From the NCBI GenBank assembly GCA_964492225.1, contig CAZBJM010000001.1, positions 30,599 through 94,598 of the forward strand: a stretch of DNA of 64,000 bases, written 5' to 3'. A program made the translations under genes and the position numbers. Origin of the DNA: an uncultured Methanosarcinales archaeon. GTDB taxonomy: Archaea; Halobacteriota; Methanosarcinia; Methanosarcinales; Methanosarcinaceae. The stretch's first letter is position 1. Every line of letters starts with the position of its first letter. The notes below the pieces were generated by a model. The model searched no databases. It was not told the DNA's origin and saw nothing but the letters and a program-made list of their open reading frames with translations. Below, piece after piece: positions 3,990-64,000 of the stretch.

Positions 3990-4110
3990 AAAAATAATGT
4001 GCATCTGTCAAATTTACAAGCCCTGCCGTAAAAACCTGATCAGTCTACTGGCGCCCATCACATTTACGCGCGCGATGTCTGCCGCCTGGTGTGGCGATAC
4101 ATTGACCGGG
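3990..4110 (+). repeat. degenerate fragment resembling the right end of the MITE-like element plus a second GC-box
   Basis: 4028-4049 gtaaaaacctgatcagtctact resembles the consensus right end gtaaaattctgatcagacaaact. It is followed by acgcgcgcgatg (4066-4077) and ttgaccggg (4102-4110), as in the modules after copies B and C. Similarity is weak. Confidence 0.3.
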
Positions 4111-5267: not shown

Positions 5268-6422
5268 ATGCAAGTAGCAAAAAGGATCGTGTTCAAAATA
5301 ACTGACCCCGATGCTGACCTGGATGCTACTATGCAAGCCTATTCCAAAGGGATGAATTTCACCTCCCGGGTTGTTTTCAGGAACAAGGCACCAATGTCTG
5401 CCGAGCAGTTACACCAAGAGGTCTACGGATATCTGAAAGGACTTGGCCTAAGGGCTCAACAGTGTAGGGGCATCATTGATCGGGTTGCAGGCAAATATCA
5501 AGCACTGAAGGGAAGGAAGTCCGATAAAAAAGGTTGGCTTTACCTAAAATTCAAACCTGGCACCATGATGATGGCCTATAAAAAGGAGTTTCGCATCGAT
5601 AAAGATACCATAAAGATAACTTCACTGACTAGCGGACGTAAACGATACAATATTGGGATATACAGTTATGCAAGGAGGTATTTTGATGGGACCTGGCAAT
5701 ATATAGCCTCGCAGATCCGCAGGCATAAGGATAATAGCTACTATTTCCAGCTTGAGCTAACAAAAGATGTTCCAAATACAAAGATAACGCATACATCCTC
5801 ATGCATGGGGATAGATGTGGGATTCAATAACTATGCTGTAGCGTCGACCAGTGACAATAAGTGCAGGTTCTTTGCAGCGGGTATAGTAAAGGACATGCGT
5901 AATAAGTACTGGTCATTGAGGAAGCGGTTGGAGCTGAAAGGAACTTCGTCTGCAAAAAGGATGATAGAGCACCTGGCAGGCAAAGAGAAACGTCTGATGC
6001 AGCATATCAACCACAAGATATCCAAAGAGATAATCAGCTTTGCATTGGGGAACAATGTCCGGGTTATAGCTCTGGAAGACCTTTATGGGATAGCAAGCAT
6101 CCCATTCGACCATCAAATGGAATTCAATTCAGAAGACTGGTTCCATCGCAAGCTTCAGATATATATCCAATATAAAGCTGCAGAGGTTGGGATACATACA
6201 ATATATGTCGACCCCTGCAATACATCACAGACATGCTCCTCGTGTGGATATATATCGAGAGATAACCGGGACAGACTTAAGTTCAAATGTATATCATGCG
6301 GCTACGAGAACAATGCCGATCTTAATGCTGCAATGAACATTTGGGCCAAGGTCAGGGATAGGAGGCAAGACCTGTTATCCCTGGGGCGCGGTCAACCGCC
6401 CAGACGAGTATGTAATGTCTAA
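5268..6422 (+). CDS. tnpB: TnpB / OrfB RNA-guided endonuclease (IS200/IS605 family transposase accessory protein)
   Basis: RuvC-I GIDVGFNN, RuvC-II RVIALEDL, zinc ribbon CSSCGY...CISCGY, RuvC-III NADLNAAMNI. All catalytic residues present. 384 aa. Confidence 0.9.
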   Translation: MQVAKRIVFKITDPDADLDATMQAYSKGMNFTSRVVFRNKAPMSAEQLHQEVYGYLKGLGLRAQQCRGIIDRVAGKYQALKGRKSDKKGWLYLKFKPGTMMMAYKKEFRIDKDTIKITSLTSGRKRYNIGIYSYARRYFDGTWQYIASQIRRHKDNSYYFQLELTKDVPNTKITHTSSCMGIDVGFNNYAVASTSDNKCRFFAAGIVKDMRNKYWSLRKRLELKGTSSAKRMIEHLAGKEKRLMQHINHKISKEIISFALGNNVRVIALEDLYGIASIPFDHQMEFNSEDWFHRKLQIYIQYKAAEVGIHTIYVDPCNTSQTCSSCGYISRDNRDRLKFKCISCGYENNADLNAAMNIWAKVRDRRQDLLSLGRGQPPRRVCNV

Positions 6423-6528: not shown

Positions 6529-6533
6529 CTATC

Positions 6534-6686
6534 GAGATCGTCTAATTAGCTCATATTTCCTCCATTTCTGATCAGTTTACAATAAACGCGTGCGAAACAT
6601 ATAACGAAAACCGCGGCACCTTCTTACATTCCAACCCCCGGCACGCTGCCACTCGCGCGCGTTTTTCCCGAGGGGCGGACATTATC
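6534..6686 (+). repeat. MITE-like repeat, copy A (short form lacking the right half)
   Basis: The first ~42 nt are identical to copy E (gagatcgtctaattagctcatatttcctccatttctgatcag). It has the GC-box ctcgcgcgcgttttt. Homology ends near 6686. The pentamer CTATC occurs at 6529-6533 and again at 6687-6691. Confidence 0.8.
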
Positions 6687-6820
6687 CTATCCAAATAACT
6701 TTTCCCTCAAACTGTGCCTCTATACAATGGGTCACCTCATCTTCTGTGACAGACATTTCCAAAGAGATGGTCGGATCAAATGAAATAATTTATATGCAAG
6801 TACAGTTTTAAAGGCACTCC

Positions 6821-9122: not shown

Positions 9123-9134
9123 AGCGGGGTGTGC

Positions 9135-10166
9135 ATGAATAAAATTAAAAAATGGATATATATTTCCTTGCTCATAAGCATGGTATCCGGAATATTTGTC
9201 CTTGCACTCACCTTTGACCCCTGCACGATACATGGTCTACGCTCTGTGAAGCATGAATATATCGTTGCTGCGATATGCATCCACGCATTATCCTTTCTAG
9301 TCTGGGCCATGCGCCTACGTGGTCTGTGTAAGACCTTTGGGTATGACCTGCGCATAAAAAGAGCACTTGAGATCGTGGCTTCAAGCATCCTGGTTGCAGC
9401 CATCACCCCCTCCTCCATGGGCGGCGAACCCCTACGGATACACCTACTGCACAAAGATGATGTGCCACTGGGAGTAGCATCTGCTGTGGTCATTGTAGAA
9501 CGACTGTTGGATGCTGTATTGATATTGTCGATCGCTCCAGCATCCCTTTTTGTGTACAGGCACGTATTGGATGACCCTGTACTCGACAACGTATTGGCCA
9601 TGACCGCTTTCCTTCTGATACTTGTGCTGGCATTGGTATTCTACGCAATATGGCAGCCACAGGCTACACGCAAACTGATAATGTTCTTTGTAAAAAGAAT
9701 GGCACCCGTATTTGGTGCCAGAACAGATGCAAGGCTTGAGAGCATCACAAAGAGGATCGATACAGAGCTTGAGAACTTCCATGGAAGCATGTTCCAGTTC
9801 ATGAGAAAGGAAAAACGTAAAGGTCTTATCATAGGGATGTTCAATACGATACTATATTGGGGCGTGGAGTTTTCCATGCTCTATGTCATCCTTCTTGGCC
9901 TAAACCAACATCCCAGCATCATACTCCTTGTAGCAGCCCAGGTGATAGTTTCACTGCTCATGGTATTGCCCACAACACCAGGTGCAAGCGGCGTTGCTGA
10001 ACTGAGTGCAACGACGGTCTTCTCAGTATTCGTGTGCCCTTCACTGTTGGGTGTGACTGTTGTGGTCTGGAGGGCCCTGAGCTTTTACATGAACCTTCTA
10101 GTAGGTGGTTTTGTAAGCTTTAAAATCATGAAGGATACAGAAATGATGAAAAAGCTCTTGCGCTAA
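9135..10166 (+). CDS. polytopic membrane protein, flippase-like / lysylphosphatidylglycerol-synthase TM-region family
   Basis: Multiple TM helices; family resemblance only. The track ORF starts at GTG 9129; ATG 9135 (MNKIKKW) is preferred. Confidence 0.6.
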   Translation: MNKIKKWIYISLLISMVSGIFVLALTFDPCTIHGLRSVKHEYIVAAICIHALSFLVWAMRLRGLCKTFGYDLRIKRALEIVASSILVAAITPSSMGGEPLRIHLLHKDDVPLGVASAVVIVERLLDAVLILSIAPASLFVYRHVLDDPVLDNVLAMTAFLLILVLALVFYAIWQPQATRKLIMFFVKRMAPVFGARTDARLESITKRIDTELENFHGSMFQFMRKEKRKGLIIGMFNTILYWGVEFSMLYVILLGLNQHPSIILLVAAQVIVSLLMVLPTTPGASGVAELSATTVFSVFVCPSLLGVTVVVWRALSFYMNLLVGGFVSFKIMKDTEMMKKLLR

Positions 10167-10238
10167 AAACAAAAAGTTTGTTTTTGTTGAACTGCCTCTC
10201 TCTTCTTTGGTTTCATCCAAGTTCGCCTTCTTTATCTT

Positions 10239-10463
10239 GAGATAGCCTAATTAGTTCATATTTCCTCCATTCTGATCAGATGAACAATTAACAATAAACG
10301 CGTGCTACATCTATAACAAAAATGCGGCACCTTTTTACATTCCAACCCCCCGGCTCATCGCCAATCGCGCGCGTTTTTTCCCAGGGGCGGATAGCATATA
10401 GGAATGGAGTATGCTTAAAAAAAGCGATAAGAATATAAAGTGAATTTCTGATTAGACAAACTC
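10239..10463 (+). repeat. MITE-like repeat, copy B (full length, 225 bp) with 5-bp target-site duplication
   Basis: Flanked by ATCTT at 10234-10238 and 10464-10468. Termini gagatagcctaattag / ctgattagacaaactc. GC-box atcgcgcgcgtttttt. Confidence 0.85.
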
Positions 10464-10484
10464 ATCTTATTTTTCAGATATCGT

Positions 10485-10584: not shown

Positions 10585-10646
10585 GGTGCATTTTATGAGA
10601 TACAGGACAGTACCAATATAAAGGAATAATAGCTGTCAAACTTGGG

Positions 10647-10726
10647 ATGAACCTTCTAGTAGGTGGTTTTGTAAGCTTTAAGATCCTGAAAGGTACAGAA
10701 ATGATGAAAAAGCTCTTGCGCTAAAA
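10647..10726 (+). pseudogene. duplicated 3'-terminal fragment (last 25 codons plus stop) of the upstream membrane-protein gene
   Basis: 76/80 nt identical to 10089-10168. Reads MNLLVGGFVSFKILKGTEMMKKLLR* versus MNLLVGGFVSFKIMKDTEMMKKLLR* at the end of the real gene. Confidence 0.75.
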
Positions 10727-10739
10727 CCATAGAAGCTTG

Positions 10740-18922: not shown

Positions 18923-19005
18923 TGCGGGAGAAGGGATTCGAACCCCCGAACGCCTGCGCGAGAAGATCTTGAGTCTACCACCGTTGGCCGCTTGGTTACT
19001 CCCGC
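18923..19005 (-). tRNA. tRNA-Leu (anticodon CAA), type II with long variable arm
   Basis: Acceptor stem GCGGGAG/CTCCCGC. 3-bp D stem. Anticodon loop CTCAAGA. Variable arm CGC-GCAG-GCG. T loop TTCGAAT. Discriminator A. CCA not encoded. One U-U mismatch in the anticodon stem. Confidence 0.85.
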
Positions 19006-19130: not shown

Positions 19131-19290
19131 AGAAGAACGATCTATTAACGCGTGCTAAACCTATAACGAAAGATGCGGCGCCCTGTTGCAGTCCAACCCC
19201 CGGCTCCCCACCTGTCGCGCGCGTTTTTCCCGAGGCGCGGATATTATATAAAAATGAACGTTAAAAGCGAATTTCTGATCAGACAAGCTC
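19131..19290 (+). repeat. MITE-like repeat, copy C (left ~45 bp missing, internal deletion in right half)
   Basis: taacgcgtgc..ccaacccccggc..gtcgcgcgcgttttt..gcgaatttctgatcagacaagctc aligns with copies B, D and E. Confidence 0.8.
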
Positions 19291-33004: not shown

Positions 33005-33200
33005 GAGATCGTCTTATTGAATCATATTTCATCAATTTCTGATCGGACGCTCTTTCTATATTTCAAAACGCGTGCACTTTATAGTCAAACACGGACCCTT
33101 CGCCACATGCGCGCGCGTTTTGATCGGGCAACTCAATTATACTATTGAAGTGGCCGCAAAAATCCAAACCCTTTTATATCTATTGTATCGGTGAATAAAG
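33005..33200 (+). repeat. MITE-like repeat, divergent subfamily, copy F (right end degraded)
   Basis: gagatcgtcttattgaatcatatttcatcaatttctgatc..aaaacgcgtgca..catgcgcgcgcgtttt. Matches the reverse complement of 63652-63860. Confidence 0.7.
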
Positions 33201-33463
33201 TTTTCAAATGGGGGGAGGATATTTGGCTTAAAAGAGGAATGCCTAGCCGCACGCTGTTGGATGCTGCCTCATCTTGTTTTTGTCTCAAAAACAATCAAAT
33301 TGCTTGCTTTCCGACCAGAAAGGTCTGGTCAAAAGAGCTGACATGGTCTCCTGCCGCGCGCGCAGGTGATGGACGGTGTTACTTTATAAATGACGGAGGC
33401 TCGTTCTTCATTTAAAAGACAATTGACTACCGTGCATGGGTCCGCACGGCGGTCATTTGTGGT

Positions 33464-38273: not shown

Positions 38274-40628
38274 ATGCGTATTGGAGTATACATCTGCCAC
38301 TGTGGACTAAACATTGCCCATACTATCAATGTCAGTTCCCTTAAGGAGAAAGCTGGTGACTTTGACGATGTTATCGTTGCCAAGGACATGCAGTTCATGT
38401 GCTCAGACTCCGGTCAGGAAGCTATCATCGGAGATATAAAAGAAAACAGGCTTGACAGGATACTTGTAGCTGCCTGCTCACCTCATTTGCATGAACCAAC
38501 CTTTAAGAGAGTGCTTTCAAAGGCCGGGCTCAATCCATTCATGTTTGAAATGGCAAACATACGGGAGCAGTGCTCATGGGTGCATCAGGAACAATCACAG
38601 CTGGCAACCCAGAAAGCCCTGGACCTTATAAGGATGGGATTGGCCAGATTAAGGCAACTTGACCCCCTGCAGGTCAAGAAGGTCCCGATCATAAAAGATG
38701 TGCTTGTAATAGGTGGAGGTGTTGCAGGTATCGAGGCGGCACTTACCCTTGCAGATTCAGGATATCATGTGCATATGGTGGAAAAGGAACCAACCATTGG
38801 AGGGAAGATGGCACTGCTAAACGAGGTCTTTCCAACCAACGATTGTTCCATATGTGTGCTGGCCCCAAAGATGACAGATGTGCAAAACCACCCAGGCATC
38901 AGTCTTATCACAATGGGTGAGGTCAGTGAGCTAAGTGGTTCAGTGGGCAATTTCCAGGTCAAGGTAAAAAAAAGGCCCAGATACGTGATAGAGAGCAAAT
39001 GTAAAGGTTGTGTGGATGAGTGTGGGCGTGTCTGTCCCATAGATATAGCAAACAGATTCGATTGCGGGCTTGGAAAGACAAAGGCCATCAATATGCCCAT
39101 CCCCCAAGCAGTCCCTCAGGTAGTCTACATCGACCCTGATTTCTGTATAGGCTGTGGTCTGTGTCAACAGGCATGTCCGGCAGATGCGATTGATTATACC
39201 CAGAAGGAGGAGATGATCGATATTGAAGTAGGCGCTATCATCCTGGCAACTGGATACAGTCATTTCGATGCTAGGCGCAAACCCGAATATGGTTATGGGA
39301 TATATCCGGATGTCATTACTAATATGGAACTTGAGCGTCTGCTCAATGCCGCAGGTCCTACCAAGGGAAGACCCGTTGTACCCTCTACCGGTCAAATTCC
39401 CAAAAAAGTAGTCTTTATCCAGTGTGTAGGTTCAAGGGACGAAAAGGTAGGCAATCCATATTGTTCCAGGATATGTTGCATGGCAAGTATGAAGAATGCC
39501 CAATTGCTCAAAGAACGCTATCATGATATGGACATCAGTATCCACTACATTGACATCCGTGCAGCCGGTGAGATGTATGAGGAATACTATATGCGTACAC
39601 AGTCCATGGGCATCGACTTCGTTCGGGGCAGGGTAGCAGAGGTTATGCGGAACCTTGATGGCCGATTATACTTGCGCTATGAGGATACACTGGCTGCGGA
39701 GATCCATGAGGAAGCATGCGACCTTGTGGTATTATCAACGGGCTTTGAGAATGTGCCCGAGGCTGACAAGCTTTCAAGGGTGTTGAACCTTTCCAGACGC
39801 CCTGACCGTTTCTTCTCTATAGCCCACCCCAAGATGAAGCCGGTGGATTCTCATGTAAGAGGCATATATATAGCCGGTTGTGCCTCAGGACCAAAGGAGA
39901 TACAGGTATCCATAGCCCAAGGCAGTGCTGCAGCAGCAAAGGCAATGCAACTCCTCTCCAAGGGAGAGATAGAAGCTGACCCACTCAGTGCACATGTGGT
40001 GCCCGATGCCTGTATCGGATGTGGTATATGTGCCAATGTATGTGAGTTCAAGAAAATAGAAATGATAGCACACAAGGCAGTGGTGGATGAATTATCGTGT
40101 ATGGGTTGTGGTGCATGCAGTGCTGCTTGTCCCACCGACGCCATCACAATGAACAACAGTACAGATGCTCAGATAATGGCCCAGATCCATGCAGCTACAG
40201 AGATCAGGTCAGAGTTCCCCTACATCGTTGCCTTCCTGTGCAATTGGTGTAGTTATACCTGTGCGGATCTGGCGGGTACCTCCAGGATACAATATCCCAC
40301 AAATATCAGGACCATCAGGGTTGCCTGTGCAGGACGCGTCGATCCTTCCTTTGTGCTTGAGGCATTGGGAAGGGGAGCCGATGGCGTGCTAGTTGCCGGA
40401 TGTCGCCTGGGTGAATGTCATTATGTGTTTGCGAACTATAATGCCAAACACAGGATGGAAGCCCTTCATGAAATGCTGGGTGAGGCGGGTATTGACCCTG
40501 GTCGTCTGCGTGTTGAGTGGATATCCGCGGCTGAGGGTGAAAGGTTTGCCGACTCCATCAAGAGCTTTGTGGAATACCTTGAAAGGATAGGTCCCATCGG
40601 CTCAGAACTACAGGGGGATAGGCAATGA
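38274..40628 (+). CDS. hdrA: heterodisulfide reductase subunit A fused to an MvhD-like domain
   Basis: MRIGVYICHCG start, FAD motif VIGGGVAGIEAAL, several CxxCxxCxxxCP motifs. The C-terminal FLCNWCSY...AGCRLGECHY is MvhD/FlpD-like. Confidence 0.88.
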   Translation: MRIGVYICHCGLNIAHTINVSSLKEKAGDFDDVIVAKDMQFMCSDSGQEAIIGDIKENRLDRILVAACSPHLHEPTFKRVLSKAGLNPFMFEMANIREQCSWVHQEQSQLATQKALDLIRMGLARLRQLDPLQVKKVPIIKDVLVIGGGVAGIEAALTLADSGYHVHMVEKEPTIGGKMALLNEVFPTNDCSICVLAPKMTDVQNHPGISLITMGEVSELSGSVGNFQVKVKKRPRYVIESKCKGCVDECGRVCPIDIANRFDCGLGKTKAINMPIPQAVPQVVYIDPDFCIGCGLCQQACPADAIDYTQKEEMIDIEVGAIILATGYSHFDARRKPEYGYGIYPDVITNMELERLLNAAGPTKGRPVVPSTGQIPKKVVFIQCVGSRDEKVGNPYCSRICCMASMKNAQLLKERYHDMDISIHYIDIRAAGEMYEEYYMRTQSMGIDFVRGRVAEVMRNLDGRLYLRYEDTLAAEIHEEACDLVVLSTGFENVPEADKLSRVLNLSRRPDRFFSIAHPKMKPVDSHVRGIYIAGCASGPKEIQVSIAQGSAAAAKAMQLLSKGEIEADPLSAHVVPDACIGCGICANVCEFKKIEMIAHKAVVDELSCMGCGACSAACPTDAITMNNSTDAQIMAQIHAATEIRSEFPYIVAFLCNWCSYTCADLAGTSRIQYPTNIRTIRVACAGRVDPSFVLEALGRGADGVLVAGCRLGECHYVFANYNAKHRMEALHEMLGEAGIDPGRLRVEWISAAEGERFADSIKSFVEYLERIGPIGSELQGDRQ

Positions 40629-41920
40629 GCTCAGTAGAAGAGGGGCGCAACTTCCAGGTATCTCGGGATATGGATGTCAATGGACATTGTTTTGTATTCC
40701 GTCAGATGACCGACAGAACGGTAAAGCTCCTTGAATATGATTATAAACGCTGCGTTGGATGTGGCATATGTGTTGGGATTTGCCCCACAAAGGCTCTCGA
40801 GCTTGGGCCTATCAAGGAGATAGCTACTGGTCTTGATGCACCTCCTGTGATGATGGACCTTGAGAAATGCACATTTTGTTCCATGTGTGCAAGCTTCTGC
40901 CCTCTTGATGCCTTCAGGATGAGCTCTCAAGGTGATATTGCTGAGAAGATGCCTGAACTTGAGACATATGTCCGCATGAACGAAAAATGTCTTCCCTGTG
41001 CCATATGTGCTGCAGCGTGCCCCAAAGAGGCCATAGACCTCGTTTTCACCTTCCAGAAAAAAGAGGAGATAGCTCCCTTCCTGGCAAAGGAGGAAAGGGG
41101 ATTTGAAGGTGAGATCGCTATCGATACAGAGAAATGCAACCTATGTGGCATATGTGCAGAGTTCTGTGATGCCTTCCTTCTGGTTGGCAAAGAGATGAAG
41201 CCCGATAGTCCAAACCCGTTTGAGCTTTTGCTGGTGGACGAGGATAAATGCGACTACTGTGTGCTGTGTCAGGATATCTGCCCTGAAGAGGCTATCCTTG
41301 TCAAGGGGGAAAGAAGAGGGGAGGCACCAGTACCTGAGGGACACCTTAGGGTGGATGAGCAAAAATGCACACGATGCACATGGTGTCAGGTCCTATGCCC
41401 ATATGAGGCTGTGGACATTAAAAAACCCTTTGCAGGGGAGATAAAGCTCAAGAGTGCAAATATCAGTGCATGTGACCCCCAGGGTTGCCATGCATGTTTC
41501 AATATATGTCCCTCAAAGCTCTGGTATGTGCCACAGGACAGTGATGCAAAGATAGCCATAATGGAGAGCTATTGTACCTATTGTGGTGCCTGTGTCAATG
41601 CATGTCCAAAAGATGTGATGGAGGTCTTACGTACCGATGTATCACATACTGTTATACCCGATGCGCCCTGGGCTTACCAATGGAAGGATGCTGTCAATGC
41701 GATAAAAACAGGCAAGCGCCAATATCCTGATACTTCCCGGACCCTTGCTATTGATAATGAGGTACCAGCAGGGTATGTTGAAGTTACGATGCCTGATATC
41801 GATCCATCATATCTGGAAGCTGCAAAGAAGCGCCTGGAAGATGTAGGGAAGCAGCTCATGCGTCCCAAGTATAGAAAGGATGTAGAAGCGAGGAGCGCTG
41901 GTCCGCAGACGAAGGAATGA
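40625..41920 (+). CDS. polyferredoxin (FwdF/MvhB-like, many 4Fe-4S motifs)
   Basis: About ten CxxCxxCxxxCP-type motifs. The start overlaps the hdrA stop (ATGA). Confidence 0.85.
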   Translation: MSSVEEGRNFQVSRDMDVNGHCFVFRQMTDRTVKLLEYDYKRCVGCGICVGICPTKALELGPIKEIATGLDAPPVMMDLEKCTFCSMCASFCPLDAFRMSSQGDIAEKMPELETYVRMNEKCLPCAICAAACPKEAIDLVFTFQKKEEIAPFLAKEERGFEGEIAIDTEKCNLCGICAEFCDAFLLVGKEMKPDSPNPFELLLVDEDKCDYCVLCQDICPEEAILVKGERRGEAPVPEGHLRVDEQKCTRCTWCQVLCPYEAVDIKKPFAGEIKLKSANISACDPQGCHACFNICPSKLWYVPQDSDAKIAIMESYCTYCGACVNACPKDVMEVLRTDVSHTVIPDAPWAYQWKDAVNAIKTGKRQYPDTSRTLAIDNEVPAGYVEVTMPDIDPSYLEAAKKRLEDVGKQLMRPKYRKDVEARSAGPQTKE

Positions 41921-42036
41921 GTGTTCTTTTGATGCAATGATAATTGCAACATATGCATGATACTTGCCAGTGTATTCTAAAACAGACCGAAGCGTCTAAA
42001 CTAGAAAACATATCAACAATGGCAGTACCTGATAAT

Positions 42037-42277
42037 GAGCTTGTCTGATCAAAATTTTGCTTTATATCCTTATAGCTTTTTTTAAGAAGCATACTCCATT
42101 TTAACGTTAATTCCTATAAACTGTCCGCTCCTCGGGAAGAACGCGCGCGATTGGCGGGGAGCCGGGGGTTGGACTGCAAAAAGGGGCCGCGTCTTTCGTT
42201 TTAGACCTAGCATGTGTTTATTGTTAACTGATCATCTTATCAAAAATGGAGAAATATGAGCTAATTAGACAACCACG
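42037..42277 (-). repeat. MITE-like repeat, copy D (full length, 241 bp, more diverged) with 5-bp target-site duplication
   Basis: Flanked on the plus strand by ATAAT at 42032-42036 and 42278-42282. Reverse complement aligns with copies B and E end to end. Confidence 0.85.
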
Positions 42278-42425
42278 ATAATGATGTGTCCTATCCATAC
42301 TAAGTCTTATATATAGGAATACTAAACACATACCGTTATGTTTTTAAAACCATATCAGTATTGATGCTACATAATTGCTAAATAAAAGATTTCCACAGTC
42401 TGGAGGGATGTAAATTAAACTAAAA

Positions 42426-42794
42426 GTGAACCTTATATCGGGAAGGACGGCAAAACAGGGTGCAAACCTAGAAGCTAAGACATACCGATCATATTTTGAA
42501 GCCTGCAGTTACTGTGAGCTTAGATCAAAGGACCTTGATGTACTGGGAGCAATGGAGGGAGATAGCCTGAAGGTCACAACGGATTTTGGGGAAGTCGTTG
42601 TATCTGCAAAGGTCAATGAGGGTAATCCCGAAGGACTCGCTTTCATTCCAATGGGTCCTTGGGCCAATGCAGTATTGAACCCAGATACCCACGGTTGCGG
42701 GATGCCTGGTTTTAAAGGTGTGCTAGCGGAGGTAGAGATCACTGCCGAAAGACCCCTGGATATGAGATCTCTAATGAAGAAATATTTGGAATGA
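42426..42794 (+). CDS. fwdD: formylmethanofuran dehydrogenase subunit D
   Basis: 122 aa molybdopterin dinucleotide-binding barrel. GTG start. First gene of a D-B-A-C order. Mo versus W type cannot be told from sequence. Confidence 0.82.
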   Translation: MNLISGRTAKQGANLEAKTYRSYFEACSYCELRSKDLDVLGAMEGDSLKVTTDFGEVVVSAKVNEGNPEGLAFIPMGPWANAVLNPDTHGCGMPGFKGVLAEVEITAERPLDMRSLMKKYLE

Positions 42795-58417: not shown

Positions 58418-58687
58418 GCCATGGCATCTGTAGAACATATCCATCGAGGGTCATGGATGACCTACAGTGTATACTTTTTCTTATATATGAGAATATATGA
58501 CCATAAGAAGACCTGTAATATAATATATATTTATAGATAGATACACCAGTAAATCAACTTCTATCACTCCCATCCAACATTGCGCTTCTGGTCATTGCAA
58601 CTATGTGGTATCATTTGAACCATCGGCTCCCATATGATACGGACGGAGAACAGCACTTTTTATTTAGCGGACCAACTACTTTACAAT

Positions 58688-58998
58688 GAGATCGTCTAAT
58701 TAGCTCATATTTCCTCCATTTCTGATCAGATGATCAATTAACAATAAACGGGTGCCGGCTCTATAACGGAAGATGTGGTTGCGTCTTCTAACGAATACGC
58801 TGTTGCGTCTTCTAACGAATACGCTGTTGCGTCTTCTAACGAATACGCGGCACTTTTTTACATTCCAACCCCCGGCTCGCCGCCACCCGCGCGCGTTCTT
58901 CCCGAGGGTCGGACAGTATATAGGAATTAACGTGAAAAATAGAGTATGCTTAAAAAAAGCGATAAGAATATAAAGTAAAATTCTGATCAGACAAACTC
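58688..58998 (+). repeat. MITE-like repeat, copy E (full length, 311 bp including an internal 3x24-bp tandem array) with 5-bp target-site duplication
   Basis: Flanked by ACAAT at 58683-58687 and 58999-59003. The termini GAGATCGTCTAATTAGC and GAGTTTGTCTGATCAGA (right end, reverse complement) match 12/17. Confidence 0.88.
58778..58849 (+). repeat. three tandem 24-bp units gttgcgtcttctaacgaatacgc(t/g) inside copy E
   Basis: Units at 58778-58801, 58802-58825 and 58826-58849, identical except the last base. Other copies have a single related segment (ataacgaaagatgcgg). Confidence 0.9.
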
Positions 58999-59337
58999 AC
59001 AATGATAAGCTAGGTATATCATCATACATATCACACATGCACCCGCGCTTGTTATGCAAAATCATAAACCTGGTATATCCATTTTTCCAAATATAAGGAC
59101 AATAAATAATACAAATACCTGTGCTTATGTAAGAAACTTCATAAATACAATGACCAGTGAAGGACATGAGTGTATGAGATATCATACATGTATGATGTTT
59201 CACACTTGTATGAAACAACATAGAAATAGGACAGAGCATACATCGGAACCACATAAGATAGACATAAAAGGAGTAAAGCAAAAAAAAAGACCTGACACTG
59301 ATAGGTGCCAGGTCACCAATATCCAAATGGACTGGAT

Positions 59338-63651: not shown

Positions 63652-63860
63652 ATGAATGTCTAATTAGAATTTCGCTTTATAACCTTTTCTCATTTCTTAG
63701 CATATCGGTCTTTTTGCGCCCATTTCAATAGTATTATTGAGCTGCCAATAAAAACGCGCGCGCATGTGACGAAGGGCCCTAGTTTGACTATAAATGTGCA
63801 CGCGGTTTTGAAGTTTAGAAAGATCGTCTGATCAGAAATTGATGAAATATGATACAACCC
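63652..63860 (-). repeat. MITE-like repeat, divergent subfamily, copy G
   Basis: Reverse complement reads atcatatttcatcaatttctgatcagacg..aaaaccgcgtgca..catgcgcgcgcgttttt..gcgaaattctaattagac. Matches copy F. No clear flanking duplication. Confidence 0.7.
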
Positions 63861-64000
63861 AAGTTTGACAGTTTCTACTCCTTGCAAAAGAGAATGTCCT
63901 CTATTTTCGCCCAAAATTTTCTTTTTTTTGTCAAGAAATCCAATTTGACAGTACAAACAATTTCACTTAAAATACTACGATTTTGACCATTTTTTCCTTA

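Follow-up and report, generated by a model that had tools for sequence, protein, structure and literature searches.

Short non-coding repeats with imperfect inverted termini and flanking direct repeats in a member of the Methanosarcinaceae: a probable MITE family

The window (the whole 64-kb stretch of DNA that was analysed) belongs to a member of the Methanosarcinaceae; its gene content includes PolD and the fwd operon, and its FwdB shares 89% identity with the protein of a Methanomethylovorans MAG and 86% with that of Methanosarcina mazei. A family of short repeats is dispersed over the spacers of this window, including the copy found at 58688-58998 (copy E). The profile search proposed in a previous sequence-only reading of this DNA was run on the window: an nhmmer profile built from the full-length copies B, D and E matched seven places on both strands (E = 1e-7 to 7e-81), and a second profile was built from all seven copies. 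The repeat was also recovered at several sites, on both strands, by a repeat scan of the whole window. The copies, the features of copy E and two possible relics were as follows:

58688-58998, plus strand: copy E, full length, 311 nt (nhmmer E = 7e-80)
58683-58687: left target-site duplication of copy E, ACAAT, read from the sequence
58999-59003: right target-site duplication of copy E, ACAAT, read from the sequence
58778-58848, plus strand: perfect 3 x 24-nt tandem array in copy E, unit GTTGCGTCTTCTAACGAATACGCT (TRF, 100% matches), absent from the other copies
10239-10463, plus strand: copy B, full length, 225 nt (nhmmer E = 2e-73)
42037-42276, minus strand: copy D, full length, 240 nt (nhmmer E = 7e-81)
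6534-6686, plus strand: copy A, a short form spanning model positions 1-158, with the right third missing (nhmmer 6534-6684, E = 6e-39)
19131-19290, plus strand: copy C, 5'-truncated, model positions 42-237 (nhmmer 19133-19290, E = 8e-32)
33005-33203, plus strand: copy F, divergent subfamily, left terminus intact and right terminus missing
63652-63872, minus strand: copy G, divergent subfamily, right terminus recognisable and left terminus replaced
4030-4100, plus strand: possible degenerate relic carrying CTGATCAG, CCATCACAT and CGCGCGCG (motif match and alignment)
33330-33400, minus strand: possible degenerate relic carrying CCATCACCTGCGCGCGCG, tail-to-tail with copy F (subfamily nhmmer profile, E = 0.85)

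Pairwise identity was 75-88% within the main family, 79% between copies F and G, and 52-60% between the two subfamilies; the flanks of different copies are unrelated and do not align. Four of the seven copies are truncated, and copy C, whose right terminus is intact, has in addition lost a TATA-like block by internal deletion. The partial copies reported previously at 6534-6686 and 19131-19290 were both found again by nhmmer. The divergent subfamily reported at 33005-33200 and 63652-63860 was likewise recovered: the B/D/E profile covered 33005-33122 of copy F (E = 1e-7) and 63657-63852 of copy G (E = 8e-13), and the seven-copy profile extended these matches to 33203 and to 63654-63866, respectively, the outer ends now being placed at 33203 and 63872. 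The degenerate piece proposed near 3990-4110 fared less well, being undetected by the profiles even at E ≤ 10, but it does share with the family CTGATCAG, CGCGCGCG and a CCATCACNT motif, and only these. The density of clear copies (seven in 64 kb, i.e. one per 9 kb) agrees with the former estimate of one per 8-9 kb, its description as high being judged from one 64-kb window.

Copy E is longer (311 nt) than the other full-length copies because of its internal 3 x 24-nt tandem array, which is a recent internal expansion. Part of the array unit is an inverted copy of the adjoining sequence. In the contig of another sample (L082), copy E is 311 nt long as well.

Perfect direct repeats abut all three full-length copies, and their sequence differs from copy to copy. 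The junctions (slashes mark the element ends) read ACAAT/GAGATCGTC...CAAACTC/ACAAT in copy E, which starts with GAGATCGTCTAATTAG and ends with CTGATCAGACAAACTC; ATCTT/GAGATAGCC...CAAACTC/ATCTT in copy B, with the repeats at 10234-10238 and 10464-10468; and, on the minus strand, ATTATC/GTGGTTGTC...CAAGCTC/ATTATC in copy D, where the repeat is 6 bp long (GATAAT when read on the plus strand; positions 42031-42036 and 42277-42282) and abuts the 240-nt element. The 5-bp duplications claimed by the sequence-only reading for the three full-length copies are exact in B (ATCTT) and E (ACAAT), but the one in D is 6 bp long (ATTATC); the ATAAT reported for D is part of this same repeat, but was read with a shift of one base that put the element end at 42277 instead of 42276. 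The chance of identical 5-bp flanks in this window is 0.0013 per copy and about 2e-9 jointly for three copies, indicating that flank identity in three of three full-length copies is not due to chance. Besides these three, the duplications can be scored on the short copy A (3-4 copies overall), which is bracketed, as reported, by CTATC at 6529-6533 and 6687-6691; these flanks would fit a full-length insertion with a later loss of positions ~159-236 in which the last base was kept.

The termini form an imperfect inverted repeat of 16 nt (GAGNNNGTCTRATYAG), matching at 12/17 positions in copies B and E and at 11/17 in copy D (the chance of a match of at least 12/17 is 1.5e-4), and the previous description of imperfect inverted ends therefore stands. 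The same applies to the terminal palindromic decamers: TCTRATYAGA occurs seven times in the window, versus 0.36 expected, and is confined to the copies. The 16-nt terminal motif has 16 sites at two or fewer mismatches, versus 4.6 expected, located at the element ends and at a fixed internal position; this third copy of the motif is inverted, lies ~30-50 nt inside the left end, and is clearest in copies F and G (AAGAGCGTCCGATCAG and AAGATCGTCTGATCAG).

The absence of coding capacity was confirmed: the ORFs of the element are short (66 aa or less), frameshifted between copies and not conserved, and a pseudo-protein derived from the best-conserved frame had no match among 5.8 billion proteins. 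The gene calls also agree with the claim that every copy is intergenic, all of them being located in spacers between called genes. The neighbouring gene pairs are convergent, tandem or divergent, and the orientation of the copies toward the genes is inconsistent: copies B and E are each located between a convergent gene pair; copy C has a tRNA gene (18923-19005, minus strand) on one side and the PolD DP2 gene on the other; copy D is inside the fwd operon, between the polyferredoxin gene (40625-41920) and fwdD (42426-42794); copy A follows a tnpB gene; and copies F and G occupy other spacers. In the formylmethanofuran dehydrogenase cluster of the relatives, fwdD is preceded by a divergent enolase gene and there is no polyferredoxin gene at this place, so copy D marks a synteny breakpoint; the empty-site comparison at fwdD in the relatives yielded no empty site, this locus not being syntenic.

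Several ENA and Logan samples yielded, through exact-protein look-ups, contigs of this species with 98-100% identity to the window. Every strain contig reaching the site of a copy carries that copy at the same position (A, B, D, E and G), and neither an empty site nor a presence/absence polymorphism was observed among these contigs. Many of the short-read contigs end 27-31 nt inside the copies, indicating that the repeat is present elsewhere in the genome, and exact-protein look-ups aimed at extending outward from the window ends gave only contigs ending at or within the repeats. Neither a copy nor a single CGCGCGCG is present in the approximately 70 kb sampled from relatives (a Methanomethylovorans MAG, M. 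hollandica, two Logan relatives and a virus-like contig). Considering the occupancy in all the strain contigs and the absence from the relatives, the family looks lineage-specific, old and fixed.

Searches in wider collections gave no further members. The core pattern had five matches in a collection of species-representative genomes, all of them in GC-rich bacteria and all due to chance; CGCGCGCGTTYTTYCCSAGG had 63 matches in the JGI metagenome collection, none of which extends into the family according to the profile. The best of these metagenome matches (L045) was rejected as the end of a GC-rich coding region. Three scans of viral contigs, one each with the core and the two ends, gave nothing real, and BLAST of copy B against plasmid and phage collections gave no match. 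Neither the window and the strain contigs nor the genome, metagenome, viral, plasmid and phage collections yielded an autonomous element whose ends match, the source genome lying outside the searchable collections.

The small size, the dispersed intergenic copies in both orientations, the inverted termini, the 5-6 bp flanking repeats on all three full-length copies and the lack of a conserved ORF support the MITE-like nature proposed by the sequence-only reading. We consider it very probable that this repeat family is a MITE, i.e. a non-autonomous cut-and-paste DNA transposon of ~225-240 nt moved in trans. A putative DDE-type transposase encoded elsewhere in the genome would bind the terminal motifs and excise the element; re-insertion at AT-rich intergenic sites would take place through a 5-bp, occasionally 6-bp, staggered cut, and the repair of this cut would create the flanking direct repeats. 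We infer that a DDE-type enzyme acts in trans and that the decamers are transposase binding sites; the repeated 16-nt motif is likely to be a binding site for the transposase as well. The identities and truncations match the pattern of a decaying transposon family, and the family is probably old and no longer very active, as the copies are 75-88% identical, several of them are truncated, and two subfamilies and relics coexist.

Prokaryotic MITEs have been described in archaea (SM1-SM4 of Sulfolobus, and elements of Haloquadratum and Halobacterium) and in bacteria (Correia, ERIC and MITEAba12), and the methanogens of the Methanosarcinaceae are not among the archaeal hosts named in the review (PMC10969869). 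The family described here has in common with these elements its size range, non-coding nature, inverted termini, short and variable duplications, intergenic location and multiple copies, and it may have, as Correia does, a promoter-like block close to one of its ends. It differs from them in its Methanosarcinaceae host and in its sequence, which matches nothing in the collections searched; its own features are the third, internal terminal motif and the GC-rich core with the invariant CGCGCGCG. No described MITE of this kind from Methanosarcina or from methanogens was found in the literature. The family is a lineage-specific member of a well-known kind of element and otherwise ordinary mobile DNA. 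Archaeal MITEs are poorly catalogued, and a family with clear ends and duplications aids the annotation of MAGs in this lineage; it also accounts for the breaks of short-read contigs at the copies, and its 16-nt terminus is a handle for tracing the parent transposase.

Duplications of 4-5 bp are characteristic of ISH3 and duplications of 5-6 bp of IS1634; both families occur in archaea, and inverted termini of ~16 nt are typical of both. The lengths found here (5, 5 and 6 bp) fit these values, and we take ISH3 and IS1634 to be candidate parents on the basis of duplication length. In contrast to these families, no transposase was found with the repeat here, and its terminal triplet (GAG) is not known as the end of either family.

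The feature that fits least with the decay of a mobile element is the core. A 10-nt block (CGCGCGCGTT) is invariant in seven of seven copies despite the 52-60% identity between subfamilies, and CGCGCGCG occurs nine times in the window, versus 0.07 expected, being restricted to the seven copies and two relics. The two additional CGCGCGCG sites (4067 and 33355) have a CCATCACNT...GCGCGCG context in common with copies F and G and, judging from these shared motifs, look like relics of the family. The invariance of CGCGCGCGTT and the persistence of CGCGCGCG are not what neutral decay would leave of a dead transposon; transposition may depend on the block, or the block may have acquired a function in the host. 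There is a small chance that the MITE was co-opted, the GC-rich core (with CGCGCGCG in a minus-strand hairpin) being a functional module spread across intergenic sites. The module could serve as a small RNA, a terminator or a site bound by a protein of the host or the transposon, and, if the co-option were true, the core would form a dispersed regulatory network in the host methanogen. The strictly conserved CGCGCGCG core is the only feature that might repay more work.

The right end of the element may also carry regulatory signals. In both subfamilies an A-rich stretch followed by ATATAAAG or TTATAAAG is kept near this end, as are BRE/TATA-like blocks (AAAGCGATAAGAATATAAAG on the plus strand and CTTTATATT on the minus strand); the arrangement resembles an archaeal BRE/TATA pair, on whichever strand it is read. 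Outward firing of such a pair would place the transcription start at the extreme end of the element; the gene context gave no sign that this promoter-like block is in use.

The core and the right-end blocks are also the basis of the best-surviving alternative, according to which the repeats would be dispersed small non-coding RNA genes or cis-regulatory modules (promoter or terminator cassettes) under selection, with a functional core hairpin and CGCGCGCG, and with the ends and duplications being secondary or derived from an ancient exaptation. The CGCGCGCGTT block, invariant in both subfamilies and retained in the relics, argues for it, as may the conserved BRE/TATA-like blocks. It is also favoured by the minus strand, which forms a single local hairpin round the GC-rich core with 90% of the cells paired and four pairs changed on both sides, a covariation reached by at most 2 of 500 shuffles; the structure used to score this covariation came from the very alignment that was scored, all the double changes stem from a single split (main family versus F and G), and in the main family the 5' half of the stem has changes that are not compensated, the hairpin thus being a weak hint of a structured RNA. 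Against this alternative, Rfam gave no match at gathering thresholds in the window, nor at E ≤ 10 with copies E and A; whole copies folded no better than shuffled sequence on either strand (z from -1.78 to +0.40); and the plus-strand consensus structure is almost nil (-2.75 kcal/mol). The vertically inherited structured RNA gene that the sequence-only reading had named as its alternative is not supported by these same results. Selected RNA genes or regulatory cassettes would moreover leave unexplained the variable flanking duplications, and neither the inconsistent position and orientation of the copies with respect to genes, nor the truncation of four of the seven copies, nor the loss of the TATA-like block in copy C speaks for them; we regard this alternative as unlikely.

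Rather than being miniature elements in their own right, the repeats might be pieces of a larger mobile element (for example a provirus, an integrative element or a full-length IS), left as solo ends or after internal deletion. Several copies are truncated, the closest relative of the TnpB encoded next to copy A lies on a virus-like contig, and copy B is located in a segment that resembles an integration scar. However, three independent copies have the same two ends, the same organisation of 225-240 nt and duplications of their own; neither the window nor the strain contigs contained a longer version; and the viral, phage and plasmid collections contained no match, making this alternative very improbable. 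A longer element with these termini would be the parent of the MITE, and its existence would be compatible with the MITE reading.

The segment mentioned above is 475 nt long, holds copy B and is bracketed by an 83-nt direct repeat, 94% identical, at 10089-10171 and 10647-10729. This repeat duplicates the 3' end and stop codon of the LPG-synthase-TM gene (9129-10166), and has the appearance of either a local duplication or an att-type scar left by an integrated element. A weak second repeat, "repeat X" (10600-10649 versus the reverse complement of 63855-63904; 50 nt at 72%, or 29 nt at 83% with E = 0.009), ends in CTGTCAAACTTGGGWTG; at the locus of copy G it adjoins the truncated left end of the element, and at that of copy B the duplicated gene end. 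It could be the end of another element, and was set aside as too weak.

An intact tnpB gene (5268-6422, plus strand; 384 aa; Cas12f1-like_TNB domain, 4.4e-22, and OrfB_IS605 domain) is located upstream of copy A, which begins 112 nt downstream of the tnpB stop codon with its left terminus facing the gene. The sequence-only reading had stated that no transposase with matching ends lies in the window; none was found, but tnpB had been overlooked, although it is not of the type that makes inverted ends and duplications. This tnpB is single-copy in the species and occupies the same site in nine contigs from different samples; being single-copy, TnpB paralogues gave no route to other parts of the same genome. 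Its closest relative (59% identity) is encoded on L090 (GCA_029972165.1 JARKUL010001469.1, 1-19865). This contig is made up of about 40 small ORFs without Pfam hits, and resembles viral or plasmid DNA from a related archaeon. In the comparison of the tnpB 3' flank with this relative, the similarity ends inside the ORF, and the right end of the transposon was not defined in this way. The omega-RNA and guide of tnpB would be located in a span that reaches as far as the terminus of copy A; that the guide RNA is programmed against the MITE end is speculative.

Elements of the IS200/IS605 and IS607 types lack terminal inverted repeats, do not duplicate their target, and insert beside a fixed motif of 4-5 nt. 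The family resembles the palindrome-associated elements of IS200/IS605 and the omega-RNA right ends of TnpB in being short, non-coding and multi-copy, in having a central hairpin, and in the position of one copy immediately beside tnpB; a derivative of this type (a palindrome-associated element or a stray omega-RNA/right-end relic of this tnpB) is nevertheless the least probable of the alternatives, and a highly improbable one, as the repeats have inverted termini, 5-6 bp duplications varying by copy, left flanks that differ from copy to copy without any fixed target motif, and no subterminal end hairpins, while copy A presents its left end and core to tnpB rather than the expected outer right end, no terminal motif exists upstream of tnpB, and this gene is single-copy versus a multi-copy repeat whose other six copies have no tnpB nearby.

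Two of the strain contigs (L006, 1-4733, and L007, 1-3195) are at least 99.7% identical inside the window and 94-96% identical just left of it. The divergence left of the window includes indels of ~70 and ~240 nt, and one of the two contigs has there an ORF of 486 aa without Pfam hits.
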